IMG/VR virus record: IMGVR_UViG_3300022602_000025
Strand: one strand, 5' to 3'
Source: a virus
Taxonomy: Duplodnaviria > Caudoviricetes
Length of the DNA: 64,000 nucleotides
Translations under genes and position numbers: made by a program
Part shown: one piece after another, positions 46,513-64,000 of the stretch
Layout: every line of letters begins with the position of its first letter
How positions within the stretch are numbered: position 1 is the stretch's first letter
Notes under the pieces: generated by a model
Databases searched by the model: none
The model's input: the letters and a program-made list of their open reading frames with translations, nothing else
Told to the model about the DNA's origin: nothing

Positions 46513-47805
46513 ATGTTCGATAAACTACCCTGGCTAACCACAGCCAAACCAATAACATTTCAAACAACAGCAACTAATAGAGAACAAAGTCTCTGTGTAG
46601 TCCCATGGATACATCTTAACATCGAACCTGATGGTAGAATGACTCCTTGCTGTCTTACCAGTACTAAGGTTAAGAATCTAGGCAACATCAACGAAACCTC
46701 TATAGAAGAAGTGTGGAACAGTGAAGTTCTACGTACAATGCGTACACAAATGTTAAACGGAAAGCGTCCAGAAATTTGTAGCCGTTGTTGGAAGCAAGAA
46801 GAAGTCACCGGAGAAAGCAGCAGGATCCATCGCAATAGAGAATTTGGGCATGTTGTTGAACGTATTCCAGATATGACTGAGCCTGATGGTACAGTCAAAG
46901 ACATGAAGTTGTTGTATTGGGACTTCCGCTTTAGCAATATATGTAACCTTAAATGTCGTTCATGTGGCCCGCAATATAGTAGTGCATGGAAACCAGATGC
47001 TGAAGCATTGGGTTGGATCAAACCTAATGAGATAGGTAAAGTTATTCAAGTAGACTCTGTAAGTGATAAAACTAACTTTGACTTTATAGTGGAACAATCG
47101 AAGTATGTTGAACGCATTTACTTTGCTGGAGGTGAGCCGTTGCTCATGGATGAGCATTGGCAAATACTAGACTTACTTGAACAACAGGATCGATTTGATG
47201 TTACAATTACATATAACACTAATTGTAGTAGCCTTACGCACAAAGGTAAGAATGTATTAGACTACTGGCGCAAGTGGAAGAAAGGACATATTGAAATATG
47301 GCCTAGCATTGATGAGATTGGACCACGTGCTGAACTTATTCGTAGTGGGTCCGATTGGAATAAGATTGAGCGTAATCTTATCGCAATGAGTGAATTAGAT
47401 AACTTAATCGTTCGCCCTAATATTACAGTTGGTGCATTGAACGCACATCGTATTCCGGAGATTGTCGAGCATCTGACTAGTATTGGAGTTATTAACTCTA
47501 AGCAACACTATCACAATTGGTACATTAATCTTATTTTAGAACCTGATAACTTGCATGTTAGTATTTGGAATGAAACATTTAGAATGCAAACTATTGATAA
47601 GTTAACAGCATGGGCCGCCGAATACGAAAAGAAGTATCGTACTATGCGTATCTTACCTAAGTTAAATCAAATTATACATGAGCTTCGCCAACCTACTAAT
47701 CAAGGTGCTAAGAATCGCTTTTTGCAACTGACTAAACAAATGGATGTGCTACGCCAAGAAGATACGTATGCTACAATTCCAGAATTAGTTGAAGCACTTA
47801 AATGA
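46513..47805 (+). CDS. Radical SAM protein with N-terminal Twitch/SPASM domain
   Basis: CVVPW...DG...PCC...CSRC; CNLKCRSC; FAGGEP; TAAATA-N4-ATG. Confidence 0.92.
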   Translation: MFDKLPWLTTAKPITFQTTATNREQSLCVVPWIHLNIEPDGRMTPCCLTSTKVKNLGNINETSIEEVWNSEVLRTMRTQMLNGKRPEICSRCWKQEEVTGESSRIHRNREFGHVVERIPDMTEPDGTVKDMKLLYWDFRFSNICNLKCRSCGPQYSSAWKPDAEALGWIKPNEIGKVIQVDSVSDKTNFDFIVEQSKYVERIYFAGGEPLLMDEHWQILDLLEQQDRFDVTITYNTNCSSLTHKGKNVLDYWRKWKKGHIEIWPSIDEIGPRAELIRSGSDWNKIERNLIAMSELDNLIVRPNITVGALNAHRIPEIVEHLTSIGVINSKQHYHNWYINLILEPDNLHVSIWNETFRMQTIDKLTAWAAEYEKKYRTMRILPKLNQIIHELRQPTNQGAKNRFLQLTKQMDVLRQEDTYATIPELVEALK

Positions 47806-48728
47806 AACAACTGATAGAGATTAAACAACTTGAACCTGTGTTATATTTAACATGGATTATCAATAATATTTGTACAAACAAATGTAGCTATTGTCCGCCT
47901 ATAACACATAATGGAACTAATCATCATTACGAATGGAGTCATGCCGAACAATTTATTAAATTACTGTTAACCAAGTACCCTCGTATAAATGTAGCGATAA
48001 GCGGTGGCGAGCCCACAGTAAGCCCCTGGTTCCGTGATTTAGTTAAACTGTTCTTTGATAACGGACATGCTGTTGGAATGACCACTAATGGTGCAAGAAG
48101 TGTTAGATACTTTGATGACATAGCACAGTATATGAGTTACATTGTATTCAGCTATCATCCTAGCTTTGAAGATCCAACACTAATAGACAAAGCTCTAGTT
48201 TCTGCAAAGCACACACCTACTTGCATATCAGTTATGATGGACAGTAGACACTTTGATAAAAGTGTCGAAATGTATCACAAATTATGTGAATACGAACAGT
48301 TAACAGTTGAGCCTGTGCGTATTACTCCTTGGATTAAAAGTACAGTAGGTTGTGATTATACAGAAGAACAAATCAAAATACTAACTTCGTTGCAATCAAA
48401 AAAAGCTACAAAAGGAGTTAGTCCAAAGATTAAAAGTCGCATAGGTGGAACATTCTACTATGAAGACGGAACAGTAGATGAGCGAGGAGATGCTCAAGAT
48501 ATTATTAATAAGAAATTAACTAATTTTCAAGGATGGCAATGTAACATAGGACTTGAAAGTTTATTTGTTTATTTTAATGGTATTATTAGAACAGGAAATT
48601 GTAATAGTAGTTTAAGAATCGGTAGCTTACTCGATATAGACAATATACAATGGCCTAGTGAAGCTGTAACATGCCCTCAGACATTTTGTCATTGTACTAC
48701 GGATGTATATGTATCAAAAAGAAAATAA
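47802..48728 (+). CDS. Radical SAM protein with C-terminal Twitch/SPASM domain
   Basis: CTNKCSYC; SGGEPT; CNIG...G....GNC...CPQTFCHC. Confidence 0.92.
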   Translation: MKQLIEIKQLEPVLYLTWIINNICTNKCSYCPPITHNGTNHHYEWSHAEQFIKLLLTKYPRINVAISGGEPTVSPWFRDLVKLFFDNGHAVGMTTNGARSVRYFDDIAQYMSYIVFSYHPSFEDPTLIDKALVSAKHTPTCISVMMDSRHFDKSVEMYHKLCEYEQLTVEPVRITPWIKSTVGCDYTEEQIKILTSLQSKKATKGVSPKIKSRIGGTFYYEDGTVDERGDAQDIINKKLTNFQGWQCNIGLESLFVYFNGIIRTGNCNSSLRIGSLLDIDNIQWPSEAVTCPQTFCHCTTDVYVSKRK

Positions 48729-49692
48729 TATACCTTGGCAATCAATAACACACTTTGGACAGCAGACTATGCTGGACCAAGACTTGTTTAACGTAAGTTG
48801 GATATTAGGACGCTTTTGTAATTACAAGTGTAGCTATTGCTGGCCGTATGCACGAAGTGATGTATTAGATCATCAGCCCTTATCTGTGTATATGAATACA
48901 GTAGATGAGATTAAACGACAAGCAAGAGAAAATGGATTTACTCGTTTTCATTGGAGCTTCAGTGGCGGTGAACCTACTGCCTACAAACACTTTCTCGAAC
49001 TAATTAAACATTTGGATGATGGCCCTAAAGGTAGTGCATACCAAAGTATACATATGACTACTAATCTTAGTCCAGGAAGCAAGTGGTGGAAGAGTTGGTG
49101 TGATGCAACAGCTATGTTACAACGCCGTAGTATCACAGCCAGCTATCACGATGAGTTTGCTAAAGAGCAGGAGTTTGGGGACAAGTGTTTACAGTTGATG
49201 TACGAAACTGTTCATGTAACAGTTAACCAAGTAATGGTTCCTGAGAAGTTTGATGAGCTGTACGAACGATGCTTACGTTTACGCAAGCGTGGTATCAACG
49301 TAACACTAAAGCCGCAGAGCAATGAAACAGCCAGTGCTATTGTTAGTGGATATACAGAAGAGCAAATAAAGATAATGCAAAATGATTTCCAACAAGAATC
49401 ATTAGGTGTGCCTGTGTACCAAATTAGATTAACAGATGGTAAAGACAATTACTATATAGATCAAGCAGAACGATTTAATGCTTTTGGTTTTAATCAGTTT
49501 AAGGATTGGACTTGCAATAGCGGGTACCAAAGTGTTATAATACGTAGTAATGAAGTCAAGCGTGGCTACAGTTGCCACGATGATATCCTAGGCACACTAA
49601 CAGATGGATTTGATTTATTCAAACAACCACAGAAGTGTATTACTCCTAGCTGTGTTAGCTCGGCAGACTCAAAGATACCTAAATGCAAATAG
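48703..49692 (+). CDS. Radical SAM protein with C-terminal Twitch/SPASM domain
   Basis: CNYKCSYC; SGGEPT; CNSG...YSC...CITPSC. Confidence 0.92.
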   Translation: MYMYQKENNIPWQSITHFGQQTMLDQDLFNVSWILGRFCNYKCSYCWPYARSDVLDHQPLSVYMNTVDEIKRQARENGFTRFHWSFSGGEPTAYKHFLELIKHLDDGPKGSAYQSIHMTTNLSPGSKWWKSWCDATAMLQRRSITASYHDEFAKEQEFGDKCLQLMYETVHVTVNQVMVPEKFDELYERCLRLRKRGINVTLKPQSNETASAIVSGYTEEQIKIMQNDFQQESLGVPVYQIRLTDGKDNYYIDQAERFNAFGFNQFKDWTCNSGYQSVIIRSNEVKRGYSCHDDILGTLTDGFDLFKQPQKCITPSCVSSADSKIPKCK

Positions 49693-50273
49693 ATACTGAT
49701 CACTTACATTATTGGATGTGTGCTATCCGTGAAAGCAAAGATCCTATGCGGACTCTTGATGCGTTCTGGAGTGGGCAGATACAAAGTAAAGAGTGGTTAA
49801 TCAGAGAACTTCGTAAGCACGTTAAGAAAGTTGTTAGCATAGATATATACGGCGGATGGGTAGGAGTTCTTGCCAGCATGTTATTCCAATCAGATATCTA
49901 CTGTGGTAAAATACGCAGTATCGATATAGATCCAGAATGTGAATCTGTTGCTAACATGATGAACAAAGCAGAAGAAATGGTAGGCAAGTTCCGTGCTATT
50001 ACAGCAGACATGTGTACCATACGAAGTGATGCAGATGTTGTAATCAATACCAGCTGTGAACATATTACACAAGATCAGTATGACTTATGGTTAAGCGGAA
50101 TGCCTCACAACAGTCTGTTGGTACTACAGAGTAATAACTACAATATAGCAGAGCATATTAGGATCGCTAATAGCCTAGATGAATTTAAACAACAATGTCA
50201 TATTAATACGTTGTGGGCAGGTGAGCTACAGTTACCTAACTACACTAGATATATGATAATAGGACGACAATGA
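49683..50273 (+). CDS. Class I SAM-dependent methyltransferase-like protein
   Basis: IDIYGGWVG, SIDIDP, ADMC, VVINTSCEH. Confidence 0.7.
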   Translation: MQIDTDHLHYWMCAIRESKDPMRTLDAFWSGQIQSKEWLIRELRKHVKKVVSIDIYGGWVGVLASMLFQSDIYCGKIRSIDIDPECESVANMMNKAEEMVGKFRAITADMCTIRSDADVVINTSCEHITQDQYDLWLSGMPHNSLLVLQSNNYNIAEHIRIANSLDEFKQQCHINTLWAGELQLPNYTRYMIIGRQ

Positions 50274-51193
50274 AAATATTAATGACAGGAAGCTCGGGCT
50301 TCATAGGATCGCATTTAGGTCCGTTAATTGAACAAGAACACGAAGTACATCATTTGGTTAGCGACTTAACTGATCACAAGTCTGTGACTCAAGAAGTTTT
50401 AGCATTTGCTCCGGACATCATAGTACATTTGGCTGCACGTACAGAAGTTGAAAAAAGCTTCTATGAACAATTAACTTTTAGTGAAGTAAACTATGTAGGA
50501 TCTGTTAACCTAATTGAAACGGCTGCACGTATTCCTAACTTTAAAAACTTTGTGTTTGCTAGCACGATGGAAGTATACGGTTGGCAACCAATCAGTGATG
50601 AAGTAGAACAAAACGGAATACCAAATGAGTTTGTAGCGTTTGATGAAAACACAGTTCCTTATCCTAATGCTCCTTACTCTGTTGCTAAGTTTGGTGTAGA
50701 GAAATACTTAGAATACATGCACCGTACCTGCGACTTTCCATTTGCCGCTATTAGACAAACTAATTCGTATGGACGTAAAGACAATGAGTTCTTTGTAACA
50801 GAACAGATCATCTGGCAGATGCTGACTAACTCTCGTGAGATACGTTTAGGATATGCAGAACCATATCGTAACTTTATCTACATTGATGACCTGCTTGATG
50901 CGTGGATGGCTGTGATTAGTAATCCAGACAAAGTGCAAGGTAAGATATTCACGATAGGTCCTAACAATCCAATTAAGATACGCGACTATGCTAACCTTAT
51001 CGCTCGTAAGCTAGGATGGGATGGAGAGATCCGTTGGGATATGAAACCTAAGCGTCAAGGGGAGATATATTGGCTAAACAGCAATCACAATCTAATTACA
51101 CAAACATTAGGTTGGGAACCAAAAGTATCATTAAGCGATGGCTTAGATAGAACTATAGAAATTTGGAAACAAAAACTGAATGTACAAGTATAA
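50270..51193 (+). CDS. NAD-dependent sugar epimerase/dehydratase (extended SDR)
   Basis: TGSSGFIG, HLAA, ASTMEVYG, YSVAK (YxxxK), N.YG, RNFIYIDD, LGWEP. Confidence 0.92.
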   Translation: MKILMTGSSGFIGSHLGPLIEQEHEVHHLVSDLTDHKSVTQEVLAFAPDIIVHLAARTEVEKSFYEQLTFSEVNYVGSVNLIETAARIPNFKNFVFASTMEVYGWQPISDEVEQNGIPNEFVAFDENTVPYPNAPYSVAKFGVEKYLEYMHRTCDFPFAAIRQTNSYGRKDNEFFVTEQIIWQMLTNSREIRLGYAEPYRNFIYIDDLLDAWMAVISNPDKVQGKIFTIGPNNPIKIRDYANLIARKLGWDGEIRWDMKPKRQGEIYWLNSNHNLITQTLGWEPKVSLSDGLDRTIEIWKQKLNVQV

Positions 51194-52271
51194 CGAACTA
51201 CAACAAGTACACTTAGAGATATCTTCTCTATGTCAAGCCAGTTGCCCTATGTGTGCAAGGAATAACCACGGCGGGTTACCCAATCCTAACTTACCAGAAA
51301 AGAATCTCAGTCTAGACTTTTATAAAAAGATACTACCGCCTGAACTACTAAAGCAATTAGTATCTATATCTATGTGTGGTAACTTTGGCGATCCTATCAT
51401 GAACAATGATTTGATTGACATGATTAGACATACAGCAGAACATAATCCAAACATTGATATTCATGTGCATACAAATGGTAGTGCTAGAACAAAGCAATGG
51501 TGGATTGATCTAGCACAAGCATTACCTAAGAATCATCTAGTGCTATTTGGTATTGACGGCTTAGAAGATACACACAGTTTGTATCGTGTTGGTACTAACT
51601 GGAAAAAGATTATAGAAAATGCAAAAGCATTTATAGGTGCAGGTGGTAAAGCTCGTTGGAACTTTATTACATTTAGACACAACGAACATCAGTTAGAAGC
51701 ATGTCGTCAAATGAGTAAAGACTTAGGGTTTGACAGCTTCCAAGAAAAGCAAACAAGTCGCTTTATTGGTAATCCATACTTTGAAGTATATGATAAACTA
51801 GGTAATGTTACACACAAGTTAGAACAGCCTAATGAACAGAAGTTAGTGTTTATTGATCGCAAAACTGTAGAGAACTACAAAGAAGTATTTTCTAAAGCAA
51901 CAGTTAAGTGTGAAGTAGAACAATGGCCTAGCGTATATGTAGATGCACAAGGACACTTATATCCTTGTTGTTTCTTAGGTAGTGTTCCTTATCAGTATTC
52001 AACTCCAGATAGACTAGTGTGGAACTTTATGCAAGAAAGCACAGGCGGTCTGTTAAAGAAACTAGAAGCCTTTGGTGGACTAGACGGATTAGATCTTAAC
52101 AAGCATGATATGAAAGATATCATTGATAGCGAAGTGTGGCAGACTATGTGGGATAAGAGTTTTGATAACAACGAAATCCTTATGTGTGCTAGAGTCTGTG
52201 GCAAGTTTCCAGAACCTGTGATCAGTCAGTGCAGAGATCAATTCTTAGACTTAGATACCTTTATGAGTTAA
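51180..52271 (+). CDS. Radical SAM protein with C-terminal Cys cluster
   Basis: CQASCPMC; CGNFGDP; C...VDAQG.LYPCC...CARVC. Confidence 0.92.
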   Translation: MYKYNELQQVHLEISSLCQASCPMCARNNHGGLPNPNLPEKNLSLDFYKKILPPELLKQLVSISMCGNFGDPIMNNDLIDMIRHTAEHNPNIDIHVHTNGSARTKQWWIDLAQALPKNHLVLFGIDGLEDTHSLYRVGTNWKKIIENAKAFIGAGGKARWNFITFRHNEHQLEACRQMSKDLGFDSFQEKQTSRFIGNPYFEVYDKLGNVTHKLEQPNEQKLVFIDRKTVENYKEVFSKATVKCEVEQWPSVYVDAQGHLYPCCFLGSVPYQYSTPDRLVWNFMQESTGGLLKKLEAFGGLDGLDLNKHDMKDIIDSEVWQTMWDKSFDNNEILMCARVCGKFPEPVISQCRDQFLDLDTFMS

Positions 52272-52272
52272 C

Positions 52273-53070
52273 ATGGAATACGGCACAGTTAAATGGTACA
52301 ACGATAGCAAAGCACAAGGAGTCATTAATGCGCTTGTCAGTGGCTATTCTGTGTATGTGTCTGCTGAGGATATAGTTGATGCACAATATCTGTGCGAACA
52401 TCAATTCGTATCTTTCTATACAGACACTGATAGCATGGGCACACGTATTGCTAGAAATGTAAAGATCATTCCTGTTAAAGAAACAGTACTATGCGAAGTA
52501 CCTCGTATCAGTGTATTTGAAAATGTTATTCCTCCTGAATACTGTAAGTCTCTTGTGAACTATTACAATCAAGCAGGTATGAATCCTAACTCGGGATATG
52601 TTAGCCGTGAGCAAGCAAGCGGACAAGTAACTGAACTAGTTGAGCAACGTGGAATCAGTAATGGCATGTTGCCCGTCCATGTAAACTATCTTGCAGATCT
52701 AATACACAATACAATACGTTTGCCATATAGTCATATAGAAGCTATTGATATCTACAATTATGAAGTAGGGCAATACTTAGATCTACATCACGACTATCCT
52801 TATGATCCTACACTCATACCTTATTATAAGAACGGCGGAGATCGAGTAGGCACAGGCATCTTTTGGCTGAACACAGACTACGAAGGTGGCGATACATACT
52901 TCCCACAACTAGATGTTAATGTAAAACCTACACTAGGCGGATTCCTATACTTTGAACAAGGATACGATGAAGCAACCAATTGGAAAACAATACACGAAAG
53001 CACTTTGATTACTAAAGGAACTAAATGGATATCAGCTTGTTTCTTTGCTAATCAACCTAGAGTAAAATGA
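52273..53070 (+). CDS. Cold-shock domain fused to prolyl-4-hydroxylase-like 2OG-Fe(II) oxygenase
   Basis: GTVKWYNDSKAQG...ARNV N-domain; Y..GQY...HHD, YEGG.T.FP, HES..I..G.KW. Confidence 0.8.
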   Translation: MEYGTVKWYNDSKAQGVINALVSGYSVYVSAEDIVDAQYLCEHQFVSFYTDTDSMGTRIARNVKIIPVKETVLCEVPRISVFENVIPPEYCKSLVNYYNQAGMNPNSGYVSREQASGQVTELVEQRGISNGMLPVHVNYLADLIHNTIRLPYSHIEAIDIYNYEVGQYLDLHHDYPYDPTLIPYYKNGGDRVGTGIFWLNTDYEGGDTYFPQLDVNVKPTLGGFLYFEQGYDEATNWKTIHESTLITKGTKWISACFFANQPRVK

Positions 53071-53756
53071 TATTAGATAACTGGACACCTTTCTGGAAAA
53101 TAGATAGCGAGGATCATACACGTTGTATGGCACAGCAAACCTACGAACCTTTAATCAATCCAGAACGTACAGTATTCTGTGCAAACTACGATTGGGCTAA
53201 CAAATATCAACGACACGAAGATCCTGTTAGAGAAAAGTATACACAAGAAGTTGTTGATTGGTTTTGGGAAAATGAATTATATCATATTCTTAAGTACCAA
53301 GACAAAGAGTATATGCCTAAGGTAATAGACGTTGATCACGATAAGCGTAGAATATTCTTTAGATGGCAAGGTGAGACCTGTAATGAAATTATATATTCTG
53401 GTCGTAACCTAGATGATTACTGTCCTACATGGCGAGAGCAAATTAAGCATATCTTTGTTGACCTGCATAACGAAGGAACTTATAAATTAACAATGTATCC
53501 TCACTGTCATTACATAGAAGATGGACAGATTAAAGCGATTGATTGGTATGGATGTATTCCTGTAACTAATCCTTTAGTTGATGCAAAGTACATGGATGGC
53601 ATAGTACATGAAACAGCTAAGTTCCGTTTAGCTGAAACAGGCGCACTAATAGATAACAAGTATAATCTAGAAACAATGTTTAAGCGTTCTATGAGCGAAC
53701 ATGTTACTTGGGGCAACCAATCTATGATGTATATCTATAACGAGATATTCAAATGA
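53067..53756 (+). CDS. Protein kinase-like fold protein (atypical active site)
   Basis: NE...., MPKVIDVD, W.EQI..IF.DLH, YKLTMYPH, IKAIDW. Confidence 0.55.
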   Translation: MILDNWTPFWKIDSEDHTRCMAQQTYEPLINPERTVFCANYDWANKYQRHEDPVREKYTQEVVDWFWENELYHILKYQDKEYMPKVIDVDHDKRRIFFRWQGETCNEIIYSGRNLDDYCPTWREQIKHIFVDLHNEGTYKLTMYPHCHYIEDGQIKAIDWYGCIPVTNPLVDAKYMDGIVHETAKFRLAETGALIDNKYNLETMFKRSMSEHVTWGNQSMMYIYNEIFK

Positions 53757-54328
53757 AGTTTATAGCAAACACAGATAATCTTATCAATTGGAATAACGTA
53801 ATTGAGTTATGCCAATCAAGCACTACGGGTGATAAGAATACAGTTAGTTCTGTTGTAGATAGAAGCGAAGCAGAAGCTGTAGGCAATCGCGGATTATTAG
53901 ATTCATATAGAAAAGTAATAGGCACATGGCAACAAGCAGGATACGACCTAAATCAGATAGAATGGTATGATTACTATCCTGGAGAACATTTTGATATCAG
54001 TGTACAAGATACGTTTGCTAAACTAATAGGTGCAGAACCGTTGCGTGTGTTTGTTAGTGAAGTATATCCAGGAGTTACTATTCCTTATCATTGGGACGTA
54101 GAAGATAAAGAAGAAGAATGGTTAGCTGAGTACGGTATGCTATATCGATATGTATGTTGTATGGATGTACCTAAACCCGCTAGCGTACTAATGTTCGATA
54201 CTGAAGCACTTACATTAAACACACAAGGCGATATCTACGAATGGAATCATTATAAAGATTTCCATAGTGCTGTTAACGGTAGCGACAGCCCACAATACTA
54301 TTTTCATTTCTTAGGATATAAAAAATGA
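53753..54328 (+). CDS. Asp/Asn beta-hydroxylase-like cupin
   Basis: PG..IPYHWD, GDIYEW..Y..FHSAVN. Confidence 0.7.
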   Translation: MKFIANTDNLINWNNVIELCQSSTTGDKNTVSSVVDRSEAEAVGNRGLLDSYRKVIGTWQQAGYDLNQIEWYDYYPGEHFDISVQDTFAKLIGAEPLRVFVSEVYPGVTIPYHWDVEDKEEEWLAEYGMLYRYVCCMDVPKPASVLMFDTEALTLNTQGDIYEWNHYKDFHSAVNGSDSPQYYFHFLGYKK

Positions 54329-54843: not shown

Positions 54844-55017
54844 ATGACACCGATTACAGATACATTTTATATTGAAAAGTTTATGGAAATACAACAGCAG
54901 AATGTTGTTATGTATAAACTATTGCTTAAGATAAACGAGTCGCCTAAATTAAAGGAACAAGTTGAATTGGAATTGGGCGTTAACATCTCTGATGTGATTA
55001 AGAATTGCCCTGCGTAA
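54844..55017 (+). CDS. Small hypothetical protein (57 aa)
   Basis: Hand-translated MTPITDTFYIEKFMEIQQQ...IKNCPA; 3 nt after previous stop. Confidence 0.55.
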   Translation: MTPITDTFYIEKFMEIQQQNVVMYKLLLKINESPKLKEQVELELGVNISDVIKNCPA

Positions 55018-55536: not shown

Positions 55537-56413
55537 GTTTAGTTAATGGAATGTCTGCCGCGCAGGTACAGAAATTACGATCGCAAACTACTGGTTCGCT
55601 AGGTACGACAAATGTGCCTTCGTAAATGTTACCAAGGCTTCCTCCAACTCTACAAGTTGCCCTGTGTACGTCTCCGTCCCAATTTATCATTAGGCTTTCT
55701 ATACCTGCGTTGCAAGTCCAACCTTTGTATTTGTTAAGATGTAGTTTGATTACATCATTAGCATGTATTATTGTTGTATCATCTATGACAGTATTACCTT
55801 GTACTGTAGATTCTTGTTTCTTAATCCATTTTAAATCATCTGGATGATATCGCATATCGTCAAATAGATCGTGATCACCTTCAGTCCATCTTATTCGTCT
55901 TAGTGTACAAGATATCTGATCAGTTAAGCATCTAGCAAACAATGTATATGCAGATGGCATATGATCGTGATGGCACATAATCTGTGCAATCAATCTTACT
56001 TTAGAATCTTCTTTTAATTTACTTAACGTGCTATAAACTCGTTGCCAATCGTATTCTAAATGTAGACTAAACACATATTGATCAACATTAAGGCTTTGAT
56101 AAAATTCATAAGGTAATGTTCCGTTAGTTGTTACACTGATCCAACTAACTCCTACATGTTTACAGTATTGGATAAGTTCTTTGAACTTAGGATGTACAGT
56201 AGGCTCTCCACCTGTAAAACTTAAACGGATAGGTTTACCTAGTAGTACTAGATTATCCACAGCACCTTTAAGTATTTCTATATCAGTATGCGGGCTTGAG
56301 TTGTCGTGTATGCTAGCTGGACAATAACTACAGTCGTAGTTGCATCTTTTACCTAAGTTCCATTCTACCTTAATAGAATCCTGATGCGGCCAACGACTGG
56401 TTACCTTAAACAT
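55523..56413 (-). CDS. Radical SAM protein with C-terminal Twitch/SPASM domain
   Basis: CNYDCSYC; TGGEPT; CNAG...DG....ATC...CDRNFCTC. Confidence 0.92.
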   Translation of the reverse strand: MFKVTSRWPHQDSIKVEWNLGKRCNYDCSYCPASIHDNSSPHTDIEILKGAVDNLVLLGKPIRLSFTGGEPTVHPKFKELIQYCKHVGVSWISVTTNGTLPYEFYQSLNVDQYVFSLHLEYDWQRVYSTLSKLKEDSKVRLIAQIMCHHDHMPSAYTLFARCLTDQISCTLRRIRWTEGDHDLFDDMRYHPDDLKWIKKQESTVQGNTVIDDTTIIHANDVIKLHLNKYKGWTCNAGIESLMINWDGDVHRATCRVGGSLGNIYEGTFVVPSEPVVCDRNFCTCAADIPLTKHANQ

Positions 56414-57674
56414 ACTTTACAAACTCCGGATTAACCATTTCAAATGTTTTGCTAAGTCGTGAACGATCTAATCGTCTGTTAAACATAATACAGTCTTGCC
56501 ATAGCTCGCTTTGATCACGTGCTTGTAGATAGTTAATGTTGTCTTGTATTTGTCCAAGTGTGTATTCTAATACTTCTGGATTATCCTTGCACATCTTAAA
56601 GTCTTTGACACGTAGGCTTACAGCTTGTAATCTTTCAACAGCTAGCTCACGTAACTCTTTAGGTAATACTTGTGCTGACAACAGCTTAGGATATTCTACA
56701 CGATGTGTATGGAATATAATACCTAAGTCGTTTAAGAAGTACTCTATCATCTTATCTAAGGTTAGTACGTTGCTTACTTGTACAGTAACGGCTCCGACGA
56801 TTCTACGGACATTCGGGATCGTTTGTATCTCTTTAATATTCTGTACAACCTGAGTCCAGTCAGCGTTACCACGTATGTAGTCGTAAACAGACCCAATGCC
56901 ATCAAGGCTGACGTTAACGGCAACTGATCTAAAAGCTGGCCAATATTCATGTATAGTTCTTCCTTTTGAAATTCCTAATGTTGTGCCATTAGTCGCATAC
57001 TTTAATTCTATTTGATGCCCGTAAGGTTTAAGCATATCTAATATACGATAGTGCTGTGGATCCATTAAAGGCTCGCCGCCCGCAAACTCTACTCGTCTAA
57101 AATAGGGCAATAGTTTTTCTAAACTCGCCCACCATTCTGGGCTGTCTTGAAACTTATCAAGAAATGGTTTTTCTTCTAAGTTATGTTGTTCTACGATAGC
57201 ATACATGATGTTACCTTCACGTCTATAGAACTCTTTAACTTCACTCCAGTCGTTCCAGCTTGTGCTATCCATAGGATGACACATTCGACATTTAAGATTA
57301 CACAGGTTGTTTAGTTTAAGTTCCATTGTAGGAATCTCAAACGGCATTGAGTAATCTTCTTTTAGTTTATCTAATGCGTTAGGATATAAGTTAATACGTG
57401 CTTCTGGAATTTTACCTGCGATGTGTCGCATTCGTAAACTCTCTACACCCTGATCCTCTAAACTAAAACAAGGTTCACACTCTGGAGGACGCTCGTTGTT
57501 AAGCACTTGTTTACGAATACGCTTCATTGTAGTGTTATTCCAAATACCTTCTAAAGTATCATCTTGTATAAAGCCAATAGGATGGCTACGACAGCAAGCA
57601 CATATGGCGCCGTCTTCTCTAGTTGCTAACCCCGTGAATGGGTGCATACAAAATGTTTTACTTGTTTTGTTCAA
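56406..57674 (-). CDS. Radical SAM protein with N-terminal Twitch/SPASM domain
   Basis: CMHPF...DG..CACC...CEPC; CNLKCRMC; FAGGEP; probable TTG start at 57674. Confidence 0.9.
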   Translation of the reverse strand: MNKTSKTFCMHPFTGLATREDGAICACCRSHPIGFIQDDTLEGIWNNTTMKRIRKQVLNNERPPECEPCFSLEDQGVESLRMRHIAGKIPEARINLYPNALDKLKEDYSMPFEIPTMELKLNNLCNLKCRMCHPMDSTSWNDWSEVKEFYRREGNIMYAIVEQHNLEEKPFLDKFQDSPEWWASLEKLLPYFRRVEFAGGEPLMDPQHYRILDMLKPYGHQIELKYATNGTTLGISKGRTIHEYWPAFRSVAVNVSLDGIGSVYDYIRGNADWTQVVQNIKEIQTIPNVRRIVGAVTVQVSNVLTLDKMIEYFLNDLGIIFHTHRVEYPKLLSAQVLPKELRELAVERLQAVSLRVKDFKMCKDNPEVLEYTLGQIQDNINYLQARDQSELWQDCIMFNRRLDRSRLSKTFEMVNPEFVKYV

Positions 57675-58389
57675 TCGCCCACTCTCGTTCTTTACACCAG
57701 AAACATTCTCCACATGTTGGAACTACTTGTCCTGGCTTGTATGTTTTATAATCTAATCCTTCAAACTCACCTTCACAACTGCGAGTTATATCAAACAACT
57801 CCATGATATCTAATCTCTTATATTGTGCAACTATCCATGACTTATCAATAAAACGGAAAGGATGACTAGCAACAATATCCATGTGTATCATGTACTCTAG
57901 ATGTTCAGTGTCGGCATTACGTTCAACATTACGTTCCGTCATACCTCCTAGGTCTATATCTCTAGGATTGTGTGTTACAGCATTGTAATAGGCTTTGACA
58001 TTGTACTTGTGACAAAGCCATTCTGCGTATGCTCTTTGTTGTATATTATCTCCGCTGACAAATTTATTGTATTCATCAGGAATACTAGGACCTATGTTAC
58101 CGTACTCTATATCTGGTGCAATGAAATTAACATGCCGTATCATTTTTATTTTTGGAAATCTTACAGACAACCAATTAAAAACTCTCTTGCTATCTTCCTG
58201 TTGCCACGGGCGAGTCTTCCACATCCTAGTATGGCTAATAACGTGTACTAACATATCGTTTGGTATTAGGCTACACAATAGGTAGGCTAGCAAGGCACTA
58301 TCAGCACCTCCACTTAAACTTATAGCAATACTATTCCAGTCTTTATTAAATGGAATACGCACACCGTCTATATCATGAAACATCTGCAT
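57658..58389 (-). CDS. PP-loop ATPase (QueC/adenine nucleotide alpha-hydrolase-like)
   Basis: ISLSGGADS; HPF....K..I; TRSCE...CGECFWC.ER. Confidence 0.75.
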   Translation of the reverse strand: MQMFHDIDGVRIPFNKDWNSIAISLSGGADSALLAYLLCSLIPNDMLVHVISHTRMWKTRPWQQEDSKRVFNWLSVRFPKIKMIRHVNFIAPDIEYGNIGPSIPDEYNKFVSGDNIQQRAYAEWLCHKYNVKAYYNAVTHNPRDIDLGGMTERNVERNADTEHLEYMIHMDIVASHPFRFIDKSWIVAQYKRLDIMELFDITRSCEGEFEGLDYKTYKPGQVVPTCGECFWCKEREWAIEQNK

Positions 58390-59236
58390 TTTCTAAATAC
58401 CTTATTAACGGACTTACTCCTACAGGCTGTCCATCACGTAGTGCTAGATAGATACTGTTAGTTGGCATGAGATTAAAGTCATAACAAACTTTATAGTAAC
58501 TACGGCTGTGCGTTGTCCATAGGTAATCTACAGGAAACTTTCTAATAAAGTGTAACCCAATCATTGCAGGTGCCCGTAGATTCATACGAAAGTCGTTCAT
58601 GATAGTAATTGAATCAGCTTCAGTATCTCTAGTCCAGCGCAGCCCTATACGATTCCAGCCAAGCCCAAGACCTTTGGAAAGACTAATTCCAAACGAACGT
58701 ATAGCTGGGTGATTGAAATCAAACTCAATATCACGGCAACAGCTAATCCAAGCCCCATCAATGTGTACAGCAATCTGTTTATCCAAACACTCATCTAATA
58801 TATCCTTCATTTGTATATGCGGCGCTCCTGTGCTTGGGAACGGCATAGCAATTATTAATGGTAATCCTTTACGCAAGTATCCTGGGATACTATAAACTAA
58901 ATTTGGATTTAGCCTGCTGTGATATCTATAATCACCTTTTAGTGTTTGTACAGGACCTTTCATATACAAACTATCAATAAACTGTGTACACCCGTTGATA
59001 ATGTCTACACGATTGAATTGATCAAATCCAGATATAGTATTAATTTTACTATCTTTTAACCAATCTGTCATTTCTTTTTTAAAATTGGTGTAGACTGTGT
59101 CTGTAATATCACGATCCATTTTACCAGAAAGTACATCTTGTATTGTTGACTCGATAAGATTGTCAGAAAGTGGTTGAGGTCTTTCAACTTCTAGATATTC
59201 TGCAGAGTATGATGGAGCGATCTTATAGCGTGTCAT
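58373..59236 (-). CDS. PLP-dependent transferase-like protein
   Basis: P.PSTG, VHIDGAW (PLP Asp), SLSKGLG (Schiff-base Lys), RIG; start at 59236 by TAAATA-N5-ATG. Confidence 0.65.
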   Translation of the reverse strand: MTRYKIAPSYSAEYLEVERPQPLSDNLIESTIQDVLSGKMDRDITDTVYTNFKKEMTDWLKDSKINTISGFDQFNRVDIINGCTQFIDSLYMKGPVQTLKGDYRYHSRLNPNLVYSIPGYLRKGLPLIIAMPFPSTGAPHIQMKDILDECLDKQIAVHIDGAWISCCRDIEFDFNHPAIRSFGISLSKGLGLGWNRIGLRWTRDTEADSITIMNDFRMNLRAPAMIGLHFIRKFPVDYLWTTHSRSYYKVCYDFNLMPTNSIYLALRDGQPVGVSPLIRYLENADVS

Positions 59237-59281
59237 GCGAATATTTATGGTCATTATAGTAGCATATAAATATTCGCATGA
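59233..59281. repeat. Perfect 16-bp inverted repeat forming two divergent late promoter plus ATG units
   Basis: TCATGCGAATATTTAT (59233-59248) and ATAAATATTCGCATGA (59266-59281), 17-nt spacer. Confidence 0.9.
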
Positions 59282-60705
59282 ATGACACAGCAAAGGTTTT
59301 TTGGTTACAGCCTGAAGACACACAACTTGGTAAATGGCAAAAACAATTAGCCGATGTTACAGGATCTCAATCGCTGTGTGTCCTACCATGGATACACTTA
59401 GCAACTCGCCCAAATGGTGATATGCGTATATGCTGTGTTGCTAATGCCAGTGGCGCAGACAGTGGTGACTATACTGTTGGCCTAGTTAAAATGGAAGATG
59501 GTAAACCTGCTAACTTTGCACAGGATTTACCAACAGAAGCATTTAACAATGACTACATGAAAAGTGTACGTAAGACAATGCTTGCTGGAGAAGTTCCCGC
59601 CAGCTGTTTAAAATGCTATGAAGAAGAAGCCAAAGGTATTGTAAGCAAACGTGTTTGGGAAACAGGTACATGGCATCTAGAAGAACAGCTAGACATTAAA
59701 GAACTTATTGCAGAAACTGAAGCAGACGGAACTGTTCCTTATAAGTTACAATACTTAGACTTACGCTTAGGACACACCTGTAACTTAAAATGTATTATGT
59801 GTAGTCCACATGATAGTAGCATGTGGGTTCCTGAACATAAGAAAGTCTATCCTATATTCCAAAGTCCGTTAATTAAAAAACAAATGGATTGGACCGCTGA
59901 TGACTTTAATAACAAGTGGCATGAGAATCCTGCGTTCTGGGAACAGATATACGATCAAATTCCTAACATCAAACAGTTATATTTTGCTGGCGGTGAGCCC
60001 TTGCTGATCAAAGAACACAAGATGTTCCTAGAAGAAATAATCCGTCGTGGATTTGCAAACCAAATTAGCCTACGTTACAATACTAATGGTCTTCTACTTA
60101 ATGAAGAAATCATTGAGATATGGACACAGTTTAAAAAAGTTAAAGTTGGATTTAGTTTAGATGGTATGGGCGAGCGCAATCATTACATCCGTTATCCTAG
60201 CGACTGGGCTACTATAGAACAGAACTTGCGTAGATTAGATAACACACCCGACAACATACAAACTAACATAGCACTTGCTGTACAGATCTTAAACATCAAA
60301 CATATTCCAGAGTTTATCAAATGGAAAGTTAAGAGCGACTTTAAAAAGATTAACATGGATACAAACGCATCTGGTCAGATAATGGGCGGCGGACTTGTAG
60401 GAGTACACCTGCTATGGATCCCTACGTGGTTAAGTCTACGTGTATTGCCTAAAGAAGATAAAGCAGAAGTGCGTAAACTATTTGCAGAGTTGCAGGATTG
60501 GTTATGGAAACACTATACACAGGATAAGGAATTCTGGGAAGTTAATCCGTACGGATGGAAACGCTGGGAAAGTATATTAGATTGGATGGATGCTGAGGAT
60601 CATACAAACTTGCTTCCTGACTTTAAAGAATATGTAACAACTATGGATGCACAACGTAAGACCAACTTCAAAGAAACATTTCCAGAGCTAGGGCATCTAA
60701 TATGA
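59278..60705 (+). CDS. Radical SAM protein with N-terminal Twitch/SPASM domain
   Basis: CVLPW...NG...ICC...CLKC; CNLKCIMC; FAGGEP. Confidence 0.92.
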   Translation: MNDTAKVFWLQPEDTQLGKWQKQLADVTGSQSLCVLPWIHLATRPNGDMRICCVANASGADSGDYTVGLVKMEDGKPANFAQDLPTEAFNNDYMKSVRKTMLAGEVPASCLKCYEEEAKGIVSKRVWETGTWHLEEQLDIKELIAETEADGTVPYKLQYLDLRLGHTCNLKCIMCSPHDSSMWVPEHKKVYPIFQSPLIKKQMDWTADDFNNKWHENPAFWEQIYDQIPNIKQLYFAGGEPLLIKEHKMFLEEIIRRGFANQISLRYNTNGLLLNEEIIEIWTQFKKVKVGFSLDGMGERNHYIRYPSDWATIEQNLRRLDNTPDNIQTNIALAVQILNIKHIPEFIKWKVKSDFKKINMDTNASGQIMGGGLVGVHLLWIPTWLSLRVLPKEDKAEVRKLFAELQDWLWKHYTQDKEFWEVNPYGWKRWESILDWMDAEDHTNLLPDFKEYVTTMDAQRKTNFKETFPELGHLI

Positions 60706-61370
60706 TCAACGCAACAATATGGCAATGTCCTCCTGGACTTATAGAACAAGCATTAGCAGAACATCCAATCACAGGTAATCGTATTGTATTGAATAAGCCA
60801 ACAGGCGATTTCTTTTACGACCCTTGGATCATTAGCGATGAGTTTAAAGGAACAGTATGGGAACAAGTATTAGATACATTACCTTATAGTATAGGTGAAG
60901 CTCGTATTATTACTTTAGAGCCCGGAGCGAGTTATATGGCACATGCTGATATTGATAATCGTTGGCATTTAAATTTAACAGGCGAACATTCTTATCTAAT
61001 TGATTTAGATAAAAAAGAAATGTATAAACAACTACAGGATAATCGTTGGAGATATATGTTTGCTAATAGAATACATACAGCCAGTAACTATGGTAGTGTG
61101 CCACGCAGACAATTAGTAGTGCGTGAGCCTTTAAAACATAGCCATCACACTGACCTAGTAGCTGTTGAAATAACTCCAACGTATGATCAGTTTGATTATC
61201 GCTATCAGTTTGACAATCAAATAAGTCCTTGGCTTAATCGTAAGAACCAAGAAGGCACATTAGATAATTTTGTCTACAAAGATACGTTTGTATCGTTTAG
61301 TATAGCAGAACATGTAAAAGATGAATTGTCTGCTTTCGACAGCAAAAGGTTTGATATCAAATATGTCTAA
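60702..61370 (+). CDS. Asp/Asn beta-hydroxylase-like cupin
   Basis: ARII.LEPG.SY.AHADID.RWH, IHTASNYG. Confidence 0.7.
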   Translation: MINATIWQCPPGLIEQALAEHPITGNRIVLNKPTGDFFYDPWIISDEFKGTVWEQVLDTLPYSIGEARIITLEPGASYMAHADIDNRWHLNLTGEHSYLIDLDKKEMYKQLQDNRWRYMFANRIHTASNYGSVPRRQLVVREPLKHSHHTDLVAVEITPTYDQFDYRYQFDNQISPWLNRKNQEGTLDNFVYKDTFVSFSIAEHVKDELSAFDSKRFDIKYV

Positions 61371-61827
61371 GGTTTGTATAACAGGAACAACACGCGGCAT
61401 TGGTAAATCTCTAGCTGAACACTTTAATCAATTAGGGTGGGAAGTTGTAGAGCTTAATCGTGGAGATAAGATAATTGAATCTGCTGTAGGTTGCGACTTG
61501 TTTATCAACAACGCATACATAACAGGACTTCAAATAGATATCTTTAACCAACTGTACGCTAGCGTTGCTAAGATGGTTGTAATGGGCAGCATAGCTTCCG
61601 ATTATCCAGATCCTGAAATGCCCTTGTACAGCATACATAAGAAAGAACTAAAAGAACGTGTGTTAGAAGTTGCTAACAGTTCTGCTACCAAAGCAGACAT
61701 CTTGTTACTACAGCTGACAGGTGAAAGCCACAACAATCCTAAATTGATAACAGACACAATAGACTTTTGGTTAGCCAATCCTACAGTAAACTGTGTAGCA
61801 TTTAATCCCGGAGAACCTAATAGATGA
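61363..61827 (+). CDS. Short-chain dehydrogenase/reductase-like (small)
   Basis: ITGTTRGIG, FINNA, MGS, YSIHK (YxxxK). Confidence 0.8.
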   Translation: MSKVCITGTTRGIGKSLAEHFNQLGWEVVELNRGDKIIESAVGCDLFINNAYITGLQIDIFNQLYASVAKMVVMGSIASDYPDPEMPLYSIHKKELKERVLEVANSSATKADILLLQLTGESHNNPKLITDTIDFWLANPTVNCVAFNPGEPNR

Positions 61828-62417
61828 AAGTTGTAATCACAGGACATACTAGTGGCATTGGTAAATCTATATACGAATACTTCCAATCGTTAGGTAACTG
61901 GGAAGTTGAAGGGCTTAGTCGTAGCAACGGATACGATATTGAAACAGACTTTGACAAGGTAGTAGAAGCTGCAAGTGGCTGTGCATTGTTTATCAATAAC
62001 GCATATCGTGATCAGCAACAGTTAAAGTTACTTAATGCCTTAAAAGATAATGTAAAGAAGATGGTAGTTATGGGTAGTGTTAGTCGCTTCTATCCTGAGA
62101 TTATTCCAACTCAATATGTACACGACAAACAAGAATTAGCAGAAGCCTGCAGACTTGCTAGTATAGATCCTAAGTCTATTCCAATCCTGCATTTAGATTT
62201 AAGTTTTATAGAAGGCACTACTATAGAAGAAAAAGATGAATCAGCGTTTGTTAGCGACAATACAACTAGTCATAAAGACATCGTTGATACTATTGCGTTT
62301 TGGTTGAATCATCCTTCTATTAGGCAAGCTGAGTTTAGATGGAAACTAACACCTTTTGTCTACAGCGAATTTAAACGCATCAATCCCGGATTAGATCCAT
62401 CTAGGATAACGTTCTAG
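61824..62417 (+). CDS. Short-chain dehydrogenase/reductase-like (small)
   Basis: ITGHTSGIG, FINNA, MGS, YVHDK (YxxxK). Confidence 0.8.
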   Translation: MKVVITGHTSGIGKSIYEYFQSLGNWEVEGLSRSNGYDIETDFDKVVEAASGCALFINNAYRDQQQLKLLNALKDNVKKMVVMGSVSRFYPEIIPTQYVHDKQELAEACRLASIDPKSIPILHLDLSFIEGTTIEEKDESAFVSDNTTSHKDIVDTIAFWLNHPSIRQAEFRWKLTPFVYSEFKRINPGLDPSRITF

Positions 62418-62942
62418 GTTCTCAAGGAACTTGTCTGGATAGATGCGCCAGACAGTTTGATCTGTGTTACGATAATTCATTTCGCATACTCTTTCTGCGA
62501 TACCTAACTTGGCCAGTGTAGGAAAATAATGTCTGTGTACTAGACGTTGACTGGCAACTGTGCTTTCGTTGCTGGTAGCATACAATTCTCCTTTGGCCCA
62601 CTCAATACACGTTGGTAACAAGAATTGATCTGTTAAGTTCTGATGTTCAGCAATTAGTTTCTTAGTAGTAATAAGTCCGCCGTTAGGTCTTGCATCTCCA
62701 AACGTACATGTACGTGCAAGCACACGATAAGCATTAGGACCCATCTCTGGAAATGAATGTGCCGCGACAGATCCTACAGCACGATCATCTTGATACAAAA
62801 TCCAAACAGCCCACTCACGTTCATTCTTAAAACAATCTATCATTGCCTTTTGACTAGAGTTATTAGCAAAGCCTCTACGTTCTGCTTCTGCATAAAACTC
62901 CGTTAAGCGTAACGGCTGTGTCCACTGTATGACTTTATACAT
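62391..62942 (-). CDS. GNAT-like acyltransferase
   Basis: W.LY.DD.AVG.VAAH, YRV.ARTC pattern; start at ATG 62942. Confidence 0.5.
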   Translation of the reverse strand: MYKVIQWTQPLRLTEFYAEAERRGFANNSSQKAMIDCFKNEREWAVWILYQDDRAVGSVAAHSFPEMGPNAYRVLARTCTFGDARPNGGLITTKKLIAEHQNLTDQFLLPTCIEWAKGELYATSNESTVASQRLVHRHYFPTLAKLGIAERVCEMNYRNTDQTVWRIYPDKFLENLERYPRWI

Positions 62943-63627
62943 AGATCTCTTTGGCACGCTCGATAAACTCTTTAGGATAGTCTGCACTAAAACTATTAAA
63001 GGCCAGCATCTGTATATCTTTAATAGGTGCAGGCTTATCCCAATCTATGCCCATAGCATCAGAATGTTTCTTAAGTTCTATCCTGCGGCCTTCGCTAATA
63101 TGACTAAGGAAACTGTTTACTGTAATAGGTGCTTCTTTATCATCATAGGTAAAGAAGTAGTTGATGCTCTTTAACTTTCCGTCTACAATAAAATAACTGT
63201 TAGGATGTAGACTAATCTTATACCATCCCAAGTCTTTGTGTGCTTGTAAGATAGCCAGCATCTGTTCTTGCCAATCTGGTAATACCGCATCAAAGTCGCA
63301 AGCTCTGTTCAAGCTACGTTGCCATAGATCAGGTCCATCTATTTCTAAATAGATCTTACGTTCTGGAACATTTACTTCGCGGATCTTAGGAACCATATCT
63401 GGATTGTGCCATGCCATGTTAGATAAGAAGTGCATCTCACGTTGCCATTTATCTTTCATTAGTGCAGGATCTACTTGGTTCATACCTTTGTGATATTCGC
63501 TATCATTATTAAACCATTGACAAAATACTGTTTTGTCTTTGTTTACCAAACTGGTATAAACTAAGTTGTTTCTCCAGGGCTCGCCCCCAGGTATTTGATT
63601 GTAGTAGTATTCAAAGTTGTCTTGCAT
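62935..63627 (-). CDS. Protein kinase-like fold protein (atypical), paralog of 53067
   Basis: WQRE, MVPKI..V, W.EQM..IL, YKISLHPN, LKSINY; TAATTA-N5-ATG. Confidence 0.55.
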   Translation of the reverse strand: MQDNFEYYYNQIPGGEPWRNNLVYTSLVNKDKTVFCQWFNNDSEYHKGMNQVDPALMKDKWQREMHFLSNMAWHNPDMVPKIREVNVPERKIYLEIDGPDLWQRSLNRACDFDAVLPDWQEQMLAILQAHKDLGWYKISLHPNSYFIVDGKLKSINYFFTYDDKEAPITVNSFLSHISEGRRIELKKHSDAMGIDWDKPAPIKDIQMLAFNSFSADYPKEFIERAKEIYV

Positions 63628-63654
63628 ACCCTTAATTATAGCATAAGTACGTGC

Positions 63655-64000
63655 ATGATACGCGGAATTGGCGGAAAGCCCTACATCAGTTTAGACGAAC
63701 ATCTTGATATACAAGGATTTGTAGATCTGCATCCAGAAATATGCAGAGGCTTTGCGTTGGCCAGAGATTATGCTAAAGAAGGCACATGGATGAAACCTGG
63801 CTTTGATTGGAAAGACGCTAGCTATACAGTCAATTGGAAACCTATCTATAAAGCTGTTGAAGAATATCTGGCATTACCTACTGAACATCCTATTCGTAAG
63901 AATGGTGATGACTTATACTTTACTGACCTAAGTGATTTTAAGAATCGCAATACATTTACCAGATATCTAAAAAGCGTACTAGGTGCAAGCGATCCTTACA
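63655..64000 (+). CDS. Hypothetical protein, truncated by window end
   Basis: TAAGTA-N5-ATG; hand-translated MIRGIGGKPYISLDEHLDIQGF... open to 64000. Confidence 0.7.
   Translation, partial: MIRGIGGKPYISLDEHLDIQGFVDLHPEICRGFALARDYAKEGTWMKPGFDWKDASYTVNWKPIYKAVEEYLALPTEHPIRKNGDDLYFTDLSDFKNRNTFTRYLKSVLGASDPY

Follow-up and report, generated by a model that had tools for sequence, protein, structure and literature searches.

Radical S-adenosylmethionine (SAM) enzymes are rare in phages, and T4 has a single one, NrdG. Here we describe an island of biosynthetic genes, rich in radical SAM genes (rSAMs), that begins at position 46513 of a 64,000-nt stretch of phage DNA (IMG/VR record IMGVR_UViG_3300022602_000025; the whole stretch is called the window below) and continues past its end. 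We found no paper describing the function of this island. Among described systems, the clusters for thymidine hypermodification in phages M6, ViI and PaMx11 (PMC8989533) are alike in bringing together kinase, pyridoxal phosphate (PLP), rSAM and acetyltransferase genes, whose products remodel a macromolecule in successive steps, in sets that are combinatorial in metagenomic phages; but they have one rSAM as against nine here, and their 5-HMUDK, aGPT-Pplase/AADT and dUMP hydroxymethylase were not found by Pfam in the island genes. The host-recognition cluster of pelagimyophages and cyanomyophages (PMC7029224) is, like the island, a variable block in T4-like aquatic phages; in a freshwater relative of the present phage (G001), fibre-like genes are seen at 7 and 19 kb from the island, and that study gives neither the anatomy nor the function of radical SAM cassettes. 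The “Host-interface island” of a Flavobacterium jumbophage (PMC13573597) consists of different genes, with acyl carrier proteins (ACPs) and lipoproteins, and a preprint on amoC phages names only HpnH. Cpz10 of caprazamycin biosynthesis (PDB 7v4f) is matched by the profile of one island family (that of the gene at 60702; E 7e-17 over HxD..H..R), a similarity covering about 100 residues of the catalytic barrel; the caprazamycin genes named in the abstract of its source (PMC9814697) have no evident counterpart among the annotated island genes.

Three of the rSAMs in the window belong to the N_Twi_rSAM family (NF033640), which is large (6,132 clusters at 50% identity, E up to 1e-10) and catalogued only, since we found no paper describing its function. 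In cells, the family is common in Bdellovibrionota and Bacteroidota, often forms arrays (with at least two copies at 41 of 79 loci), and is sometimes accompanied by an rSAM with a C-terminal Cys domain and rarely by a methyltransferase-like gene; it was never found with the PLP, PP-loop or kinase-fold families described below, and gave one marginal match to a Cpz10-like protein (14.5 bits). Unlike these cellular arrays, the phage island has three N_Twi copies alongside six other rSAMs. For three further rSAMs (rSAM2, rSAM3, and rSAM5) the best or near-best NCBIfam match is STM4011 (NF038073), at 32-48 bits against a cut-off of 200; rSAM5 also matches the C-terminal part of that model (positions 192-253), and all three are non-members. 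To our knowledge, the STM4011 family is itself uncharacterised.

Radical SAM genes and the conserved core

The island is real, conserved and functionally uncharacterised, and an earlier note, made from the letters of this DNA alone, had described it essentially correctly as an uncharacterised multi-enzyme locus. The seven rSAMs it had placed in the window are all matched by Pfam PF04055 (six of the seven above 29.5 bits; rSAM1 at 28.6 bits, but with 361 bits on NF033640), and each has a CxxxCxxC motif together with four to eight additional Cys; as a count for the island, seven is a lower bound, since two more lie past the window end. The rSAMs in the window are:

46513-47805, + strand: rSAM1, N_Twi_rSAM; Cys28/46/47/89/92, then CxxxCxxC at 144; head of operon A
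47802-48728, + strand: rSAM2, a short rSAM with a C-terminal five-Cys domain, weakly STM4011-like
48703-49692, + strand: rSAM3, of the same subfamily as rSAM2; core gene
51180-52271, + strand: rSAM4, with the radical SAM core first and then a C-terminal twitch-like Cys domain (unpermuted order); core family
55523-56413, - strand: rSAM5, C-terminal-Cys subfamily; core gene
56406-57713, - strand: rSAM6, N_Twi_rSAM; core gene; start uncertain (the candidate start GTG 57713 retains the invariant first Cys)
59278-60705, + strand: rSAM7, N_Twi_rSAM; best-conserved core gene; head of operon C

They fall into three subfamilies: three N_Twi_rSAM proteins, three short proteins with C-terminal Cys, and one with a C-terminal twitch domain. 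The first three match NF033640 over its full length (model positions 1-398), with 361 bits (46513), 318 bits (56406), and 407 bits (59278) against a curated cut-off of 170 bits, and the other four are non-members at 22-48 bits. In the N_Twi order a Cys-rich twitch/SPASM-like domain precedes the CxxxCxxC core; in an alignment of 29 sequences, C28, C46, C89, and C92 are invariant ahead of C144/C148/C151. The short rSAMs (rSAM2, rSAM3, and rSAM5) share a C-terminal W-x-C..C..C-x4-C-x-C domain and are 24-26% identical to one another. The set has intact CxxxCxxC and GGEP motifs, and the island enzymes are presumably active.

None of the seven reaches the curated cut-off for MoaA, NrdG, QueE or viperin (best scores, with cut-offs in parentheses: MoaA 37.5 (284), NrdG2 28.9 (131), QueE 37.5 (260), and viperin 53.7 (180)), which supports the earlier reading, for which membership in such housekeeping families had been named as a refutation; QueE was considered for each of them and is ruled out, the scores being far under its cut-off. 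PDB sequence searches with rSAM7 and rSAM4 gave nothing informative, rSAM5 showed only an N-terminal viperin-type similarity, and no close solved relative was found for the rSAMs of the window. In PHROGs, the core families had no match, or only a generic “radical SAM” match.

The window holds the first half of an island of about 35 kb, which continues for about 17.5 kb and ends at about 81.5 kb. The region past the window end was read on a 50.5-kb lake-metagenome contig (JGI 3300013094, locus L184); the sequence was near-complete in two lake-water runs, which may be its source, and two-thirds of its sampled words were present in a third, freshwater run. This region adds two more rSAMs (giving at least nine in the island), a pair of oxygenases of the Asp/Arg-hydroxylase type, one cupin-like protein, and numerous unknowns. 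At the far end, IscU (NifU_N) adjoins an ErpA-like A-type carrier (Fe-S_biosyn), followed by a DNA ligase:

L184 19101-19800 (window-equivalent 81632-82331): IscU-ErpA pair, NifU_N and Fe-S_biosyn

Four relatives were searched for these genes: each has the A-type carrier, and three have IscU as well, next to the carrier in two of them (about 10-18 kb from the island) and apart from it in the third; the fourth has the carrier alone. An Fe-S scaffold of the phage's own, close to at least nine Fe-S enzymes, indicates that these enzymes are very probably used. Nine rSAMs together with Fe-S genes, conserved in abundant freshwater and marine jumbo phages, point to a costly chemistry late in infection.

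Conservation was judged across 84 related viral loci, and the co-occurrence of the genes proposed earlier is borne out for a core: five rSAMs, the methyltransferase-like gene, the PP-loop gene, and the PLP gene recur at 41-86% identity, joined by the Cpz10-like hydroxylase (26-58%). The highest identities are those of rSAM7 (60-86%), rSAM6 (63-80%, always followed by rSAM5 at 57-82%), and rSAM3 (64-78%, nearly always or usually followed by the methyltransferase-like gene at 48-81%); the PP-loop gene shares 50-81% and the PLP gene 41-74%, and genes of the rSAM4 type number one to three per relative. The relatives differ by a shuffling of gene order and strand. Five of the genes listed in the earlier note lie outside this core, namely rSAM1, rSAM2, the epimerase, the oxygenase with a cold-shock-like region, and the sulfotransferase, which like the small ORF at 46270 (open reading frame) are without conservation in the 84 loci; relatives carry only paralogues of rSAM1 (24-32%) and rSAM2 (22-28%). 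The accessory genes (kinase-fold, HxD..H paralogues, SDR-like, and GNAT-like) are variable, and the islands of relatives include, in addition, a Trp-halogenase-like gene, an aminotransferase of class III, and other hydroxylases.

For rSAM7 there are more than 4,000 homologues, of which the best 120 are 79-84% identical and almost all metagenomic. Comparable arrangements are found at several distances: a 270-kb relative has 10 rSAM genes inside 28 kb; another phage-like contig pairs a C-terminal-Cys rSAM with an rSAM1 homologue (56%), PTPS and Fe-S_biosyn genes being close by; in another lineage a 41% N-Twi homologue is directly 3′ of a QueC-like PP-loop gene; in a marine locus (L095) an N-Twi and an rSAM form a single fused protein beside the methyltransferase-like and rSAM4 families; and the pair of N-Twi and partner rSAM is also found in metagenome-assembled genomes (MAGs) of Bdellovibrionota. 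Ten fused N-Twi homologues were scanned, nine of which had no informative partner domain; one carries TPR repeats, and one a second rSAM core. In the cultured, KVP40-like Vibrio phage K566 (L085), four N-Twi paralogues are clustered among hypothetical genes at 13968-20710, close to the NAD-salvage genes of that phage; Vibrio phage K567 likewise has four clustered N-Twi paralogues, and Ralstonia phage RsoM2USA has one. The island is an entry point to the function of the very large N_Twi_rSAM family, and may explain the role of the “radical SAM cassettes” that aquatic T4-like phages carry where their host-recognition regions are variable.

The source of the window is an uncultivated freshwater jumbo myovirus, T4-like in its genes for tail sheath, tail tube, large terminase (54% identity to that of Pseudomonas phage PA5oct), gp32-type single-stranded DNA-binding protein, UvsX, and replicative helicases. 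At the nucleotide level, the island matched none of 50,697 phage records.

Accompanying enzymes and operon structure

The partner enzymes named earlier fared unevenly: the epimerase, the 2-oxoglutarate (2OG) oxygenases, and the PLP, PP-loop, sulfotransferase-like, and kinase-fold proteins are backed by profile, motif or structure matches, and the methyltransferase, GNAT, and short-chain dehydrogenase/reductase (SDR) assignments are weakly supported. Two gene starts are also revised, that of the PLP gene from 59323 to 59236, and that of the last gene, which begins at ATG 63655. The non-rSAM genes are:

46270-46485, + strand: small ORF of 71 aa, basic and Lys/Gly/His-rich, with its own TAAATA-N5-ATG; directly 5′ of operon A
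49683-50273, + strand: methyltransferase-like, Rossmann-type, with DIxGGWxG and SIDIDP motifs; core gene
50270-51193, + strand: NAD-dependent sugar-nucleotide epimerase/4,6-dehydratase (Pfam E 3e-36)
52273-53070, + strand: P4H-type 2OG-Fe(II) oxygenase (PF13640, 30.9 bits; cut-off 27)
53067-53756, + strand: protein-kinase-fold protein (pLDDT 94.7; Z 12.8 to protein kinases); variable accessory gene
53753-54328 and 54325-54840, + strand: HxD..H paralogues, distant kin of the 60702 oxygenases; variable accessory genes
54949-55536, - strand: sulfotransferase-fold protein, Stf0/NodH-like (Atlas structure, TM 0.70-0.73); last gene of operon B
57658-58389, - strand: PP-loop ATP pyrophosphatase with SGGADS and a QueC-type C-terminal Zn motif, TRSCEG..CGECFWCKER; core gene
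58373-59236, - strand: PLP fold-type I enzyme, short, aminotransferase class I/II, C-S lyase-like; head of operon B; core gene
60702-61370, + strand: 2OG/Fe(II) hydroxylase of the Cpz10 family, with H81, D83, H125, and R135 invariant; core gene
61363-61827 and 61824-62417, + strand: SDR-like pair with TGxxxGIG, NNAY, and YxxxK motifs; variable accessory genes
62391-62942, - strand: GNAT-like, by language-model neighbours only; variable accessory gene
62935-63627, - strand: second kinase-fold paralogue, 16% identical to the first; head of operon D
63655-64000, + strand: start of a 271-aa protein with a faint GT10 match; head of operon E; runs off the window

The family of the gene at 49683 has no Pfam, PDB or PHROG match, and its motifs and language-model neighbours weakly suggest a SAM-dependent methyltransferase. 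PDB searches with the PLP-like and methyltransferase-like profiles gave no match; the PLP enzyme is predicted by AlphaFold2 at pLDDT 89 and has an invariant SLSK lysine. The best NCBIfam match of the epimerase is LegB (120 bits, under the cut-off of 475), and the N-terminal cold-shock-like region of the oxygenase at 52273 is weak (19 bits, below cut-off). The HxD..H paralogues align with the 60702 family by hhalign at a probability of 59.5% (E 9e-5), and Pfam gave chance-level matches only for this family and for the kinase-like family. Both kinase-fold proteins are without the conserved catalytic-loop Asp or an obvious beta-3 Lys and retain the alpha-C Glu, the catalytic-loop Lys, and a DFG-like Asp; they may act as kinases of an atypical kind or through another nucleotide-dependent activity. 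The SDR-like proteins are short (154-197 aa) with Rossmann matches in the N-terminal part only, so that their assignment, like that of the GNAT-like protein, is a weak one. The PP-loop protein scores 17.2 bits on Pfam QueC (cut-off 22), and its profile picks up nothing in the PDB but NcsA/TtuA and NadE, in their PP-loop regions and with E values no better than 0.2; as a genuine QueC it was rejected, the score being far under the cut-off.

The genes lie in tightly coupled operons, as had been noted before, and the heads of these operons share an element with structural genes of the phage. Of 30 copies of TAAATA in the window, 15 sit 4-6 nt ahead of an ATG that opens a real ORF; the same 15 are counted when the range is set at 3-7 nt, compared with 0-21% for hexamers of the same composition, TAAATA itself being under-represented in the window. 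Among the genes preceded by TAAATA-N4-6-ATG are those for the tail tube, the terminase, and a virion protein, together with the first genes of operons A, B, and C:

4223, 8740, 10326, 46503, 59247 (- strand), and 59267, for example: TAAATA sites ahead of an ATG, out of 15 spanning 4223-59278
59238-59276: inverted repeat, each arm with ATAAATATTCGC right before the divergent ATGs at 59236 (- strand) and 59278 (+ strand)

The earlier claim of TAAATA at the operon heads holds in its perfect form for three of the five, 46513 (as well as the small ORF at 46270 just 5′ of it), 59236, and 59278; the head pair 63627/63655 has one-mismatch variants, the gene at 62935 standing behind TAATTA. The divergent heads 59236 and 59278 have an identical 16-mer, ATAAATATTCGCATGA, as an inverted repeat, which suggests that 59238-59276 is a pair of late-type, almost leaderless promoters. 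In relatives, the element precedes operon-head genes (PLP 38/55, hydroxylase 31/47, and rSAM3 27/57) and is nearly absent before internal genes (methyltransferase-like 0/71 and rSAM6 1/61), tracking whichever gene heads the operon, whatever the gene order.

The T4 late promoter is TATAAATA. The resemblance of TAAATA-N4-6-ATG to it suggests late, almost leaderless transcription, and on the evidence of this motif the island appears to be transcribed late. At 4-6 nt from the ATG, the element leaves no space for a Shine-Dalgarno (SD) sequence at the head genes, and the late mRNAs are probably leaderless or nearly so, with promoters fused to start codons. An SD-like 4-mer precedes 18 of 57 long ORFs, against a background of 6.5%, which indicates that the host uses SD sequences and that their lack at the heads is a property of the promoter-ATG fusion.

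What the island may act on

All classifiable island genes are tailoring enzymes, and scans of the island found no glycan polymerase, non-ribosomal peptide synthetase or polyketide synthase, precursor peptide, or base-insertion enzyme. Since there is no scaffold-building gene, the substrate is most likely made elsewhere and already present in the infected cell. We therefore favour, with a probability of roughly 70%, a phage-specific, modular island of tailoring enzymes that act stepwise on a pre-existing substrate of the cell. Its repeating unit would be an N_Twi_rSAM paired with a short rSAM bearing a C-terminal Cys domain; around this unit would work the third rSAM type, the methyltransferase-like protein, the PLP enzyme, the O2-dependent hydroxylases, and the PP-loop ATPase, the last by adenylation followed by amidation or thiolation. 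Lineage-specific accessories (kinase-fold, SDR, and GNAT-like proteins, and here also the dehydratase/epimerase and a carbohydrate-type sulfotransferase) would be added to these; T4-style late promoters, each fused to a start codon, would drive the operons, and the phage IscU-ErpA pair probably supplies the Fe-S clusters.

As to the substrate itself, we tentatively suggest one of carbohydrate type, a rare sugar or a glycan destined for the fibres of the virion or for the host envelope, though at somewhat less than even odds. This suggestion is drawn from the dehydratase/epimerase and the Stf0/NodH-like sulfotransferase coupled to operon B, the APS-kinase-like and cytidylyltransferase-like genes just 5′ of the island, the presence of WbdD among the kinase-fold matches, the cellular N-Twi contexts (a Paenibacillus operon with ACP, ketosynthase (KS), ketoreductase (KR), and family 2 glycosyltransferase (GT2) genes, and, in a MAG of Bacteroidales, the vicinity of a polysaccharide cluster), and the giant fibre-like genes 7-19 kb from the island of the relative G001 (IMGVR_UViG_3300017917_002434, a related jumbo phage of 270 kb, 76% complete). 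Pathways for rare sugars and lipopolysaccharide are known to employ amidotransferases of the PP-loop type, aminotransferases that use PLP, GNATs, and hydroxylases of the LpxO/KdoO type.

Several observations weigh against a sugar-type substrate or the proposed pathway. The epimerase and the sulfotransferase, the clearest sugar genes, are outside the conserved core; the island in the window is without a clear glycosyltransferase or sugar nucleotidyltransferase (there is only the faint GT10 match); the PLP enzyme resembles aminotransferases of class I/II and not the DegT type usual for amino sugars; and from the set for nonulosonic acids of the pseudaminic/legionaminic (Pse/Leg) pathways only the LegB-like dehydratase (120 vs 475 bits) was found, with no NeuB or CTP_transf_3 match. 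Protein modification, too, typically involves the kinase fold, oxygenases of P4H and Asp/Arg-hydroxylase type, and SPASM/twitch rSAMs. Finally, rSAMs are oxygen-sensitive and 2OG oxygenases oxygen-requiring, so that a joint pathway is puzzling; the adjacent coding of both kinds of enzyme is a biochemical puzzle in its own right.

A more specific version, in which at least nine rSAMs fed by the phage IscU/ErpA work in series with the oxygenases to build a virion structure (a fibre protein or a glycan), is doubtful. If it were true, the island would be a previously undescribed viral biosynthetic machinery, whose cassette swaps diversify host recognition or shield the particle, and would give the N-terminal-twitch rSAM family its first biological role. 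No fibre gene was found in the approximately 84 kb of this phage's own genome that were read.

That the enzyme types suit proteins as well leads to an alternative that we regard as unlikely: the island would modify a phage protein encoded elsewhere, such as a tail fibre or another virion protein, in the manner of the proteusins, which belong to the peptides made on ribosomes and modified after translation (RiPPs), through rSAM cross-links or epimerisation, hydroxylation, phosphorylation, and methylation. The SPASM/twitch-type auxiliary domains, the two kinase-fold proteins with their Bud32/Rio/PknB-like matches, and the P4H-type and Asp/Arg-hydroxylase-type oxygenases are consistent with such chemistry, as are the PCMT-type language-model neighbours of the methyltransferase-like protein (0.88-0.89, a lead only) and the N-Twi homologue fused to TPR repeats; late-type promoters are common to the island and the virion genes, fibre-like genes are near the island in one relative, and the lack of scaffold genes fits a substrate encoded elsewhere. 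Yet the core is accompanied by no conserved small ORF or precursor (the sole candidate, the ORF at 46270, has no Pfam match and is present in 0 of 84 loci), and neither a Cys-repeat peptide nor a poly-Cys or Cys-tail fibre peptide was found in an island with almost no intergenic space. No PqqD or RiPP recognition element (RRE) was matched by Pfam on the island proteins, a search that divergent RREs escape, and the cellular contexts of N-Twi genes are lipid, polyketide or glycan rather than RiPP.

The Cpz10-like hydroxylase raises a different prospect, a free small molecule (a nucleoside-type antibiotic, a signal or a cofactor) that diffuses, stays unattached to the virion, and acts on the host or on competitors. 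Cpz10 hydroxylates an aminoacyl-uridine intermediate of caprazamycin (PMC9814697); the Trp-halogenase-like gene, the class III aminotransferase, and the further hydroxylases of the relatives are typical of secondary-metabolite tailoring, and the Paenibacillus N-Twi gene lies in an operon with ACP, KS, KR, and GT2 genes. We consider this improbable, because the similarity to Cpz10 reflects a fold family in common and not a substrate, no transporter, resistance or scaffold gene was seen, and late-type promoters allow little time for such a product before lysis.

Modification of nucleic acid is poorer still as a candidate. It would yield a hypermodified base in tRNA or in the DNA of the phage, for example an elaborated 7-deazapurine, through the QueC-like PP-loop enzyme working with FolE, QueD, and a QueE-like gene encoded elsewhere in the genome. 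A QueC-type Zn motif is present in the PP-loop protein, some of whose orthologues reach Pfam QueC, and the protein's C-terminus matches the QueC-like phrog_1550 (E 4e-7); but by profile it resembles TtuA/NcsA or NadE at least as closely as it does QueC. The relative G001 has PTPS/QueD (45720-46196), FolE (99382-99888), and a QueE-like ORF with a split motif (104649-105104), with no canonical QueC, and its QueD and FolE are 13-67 kb away from the island. A cold-shock-like region is fused to one oxygenase, though this fusion is unconserved, and kinase, PLP, rSAM, and acetyltransferase genes are the classes of thymidine hypermodification (PMC8989533), though no aGPT-Pplase was matched by Pfam in the scanned island genes and the kinases have the protein-kinase fold, not that of the P-loop 5-HMUDK. 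Pfam scans of the 76%-complete relative detected neither TGT/DpdA (PF01702) nor a ThyA-type hydroxymethylase (PF00303); the PF01702 model can miss DpdA clades that are divergent. Of the targets proposed in the earlier note, DNA has the least support.

The flanks of the island in this phage are of two kinds, early-type small genes on one side and the IscU-ErpA pair with the DNA ligase on the other. Directly ahead of the island, at 45563-46261, is a secreted SleB/CwlJ-type cell-wall hydrolase (PF07486, E 1e-17), likely a lysis or entry enzyme. At 44116-45402, a cytidylyltransferase-like gene (- strand, with a TAAATA head) lies beside a P-loop kinase, which has an APS-kinase match of 31 bits and is fused to a cytidylyltransferase-like C-terminus; this pair could serve NadR-like NAD salvage, or the activation of PAPS or sugars for the adjoining island. 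Further upstream, 28000-44000 differs in composition from the rest of the window (GC 46-48%, against 37-40% elsewhere), is dense in small ORFs, and looks like an early-gene region; a tRNA-Met is located within it, at 40185-40263 (- strand).

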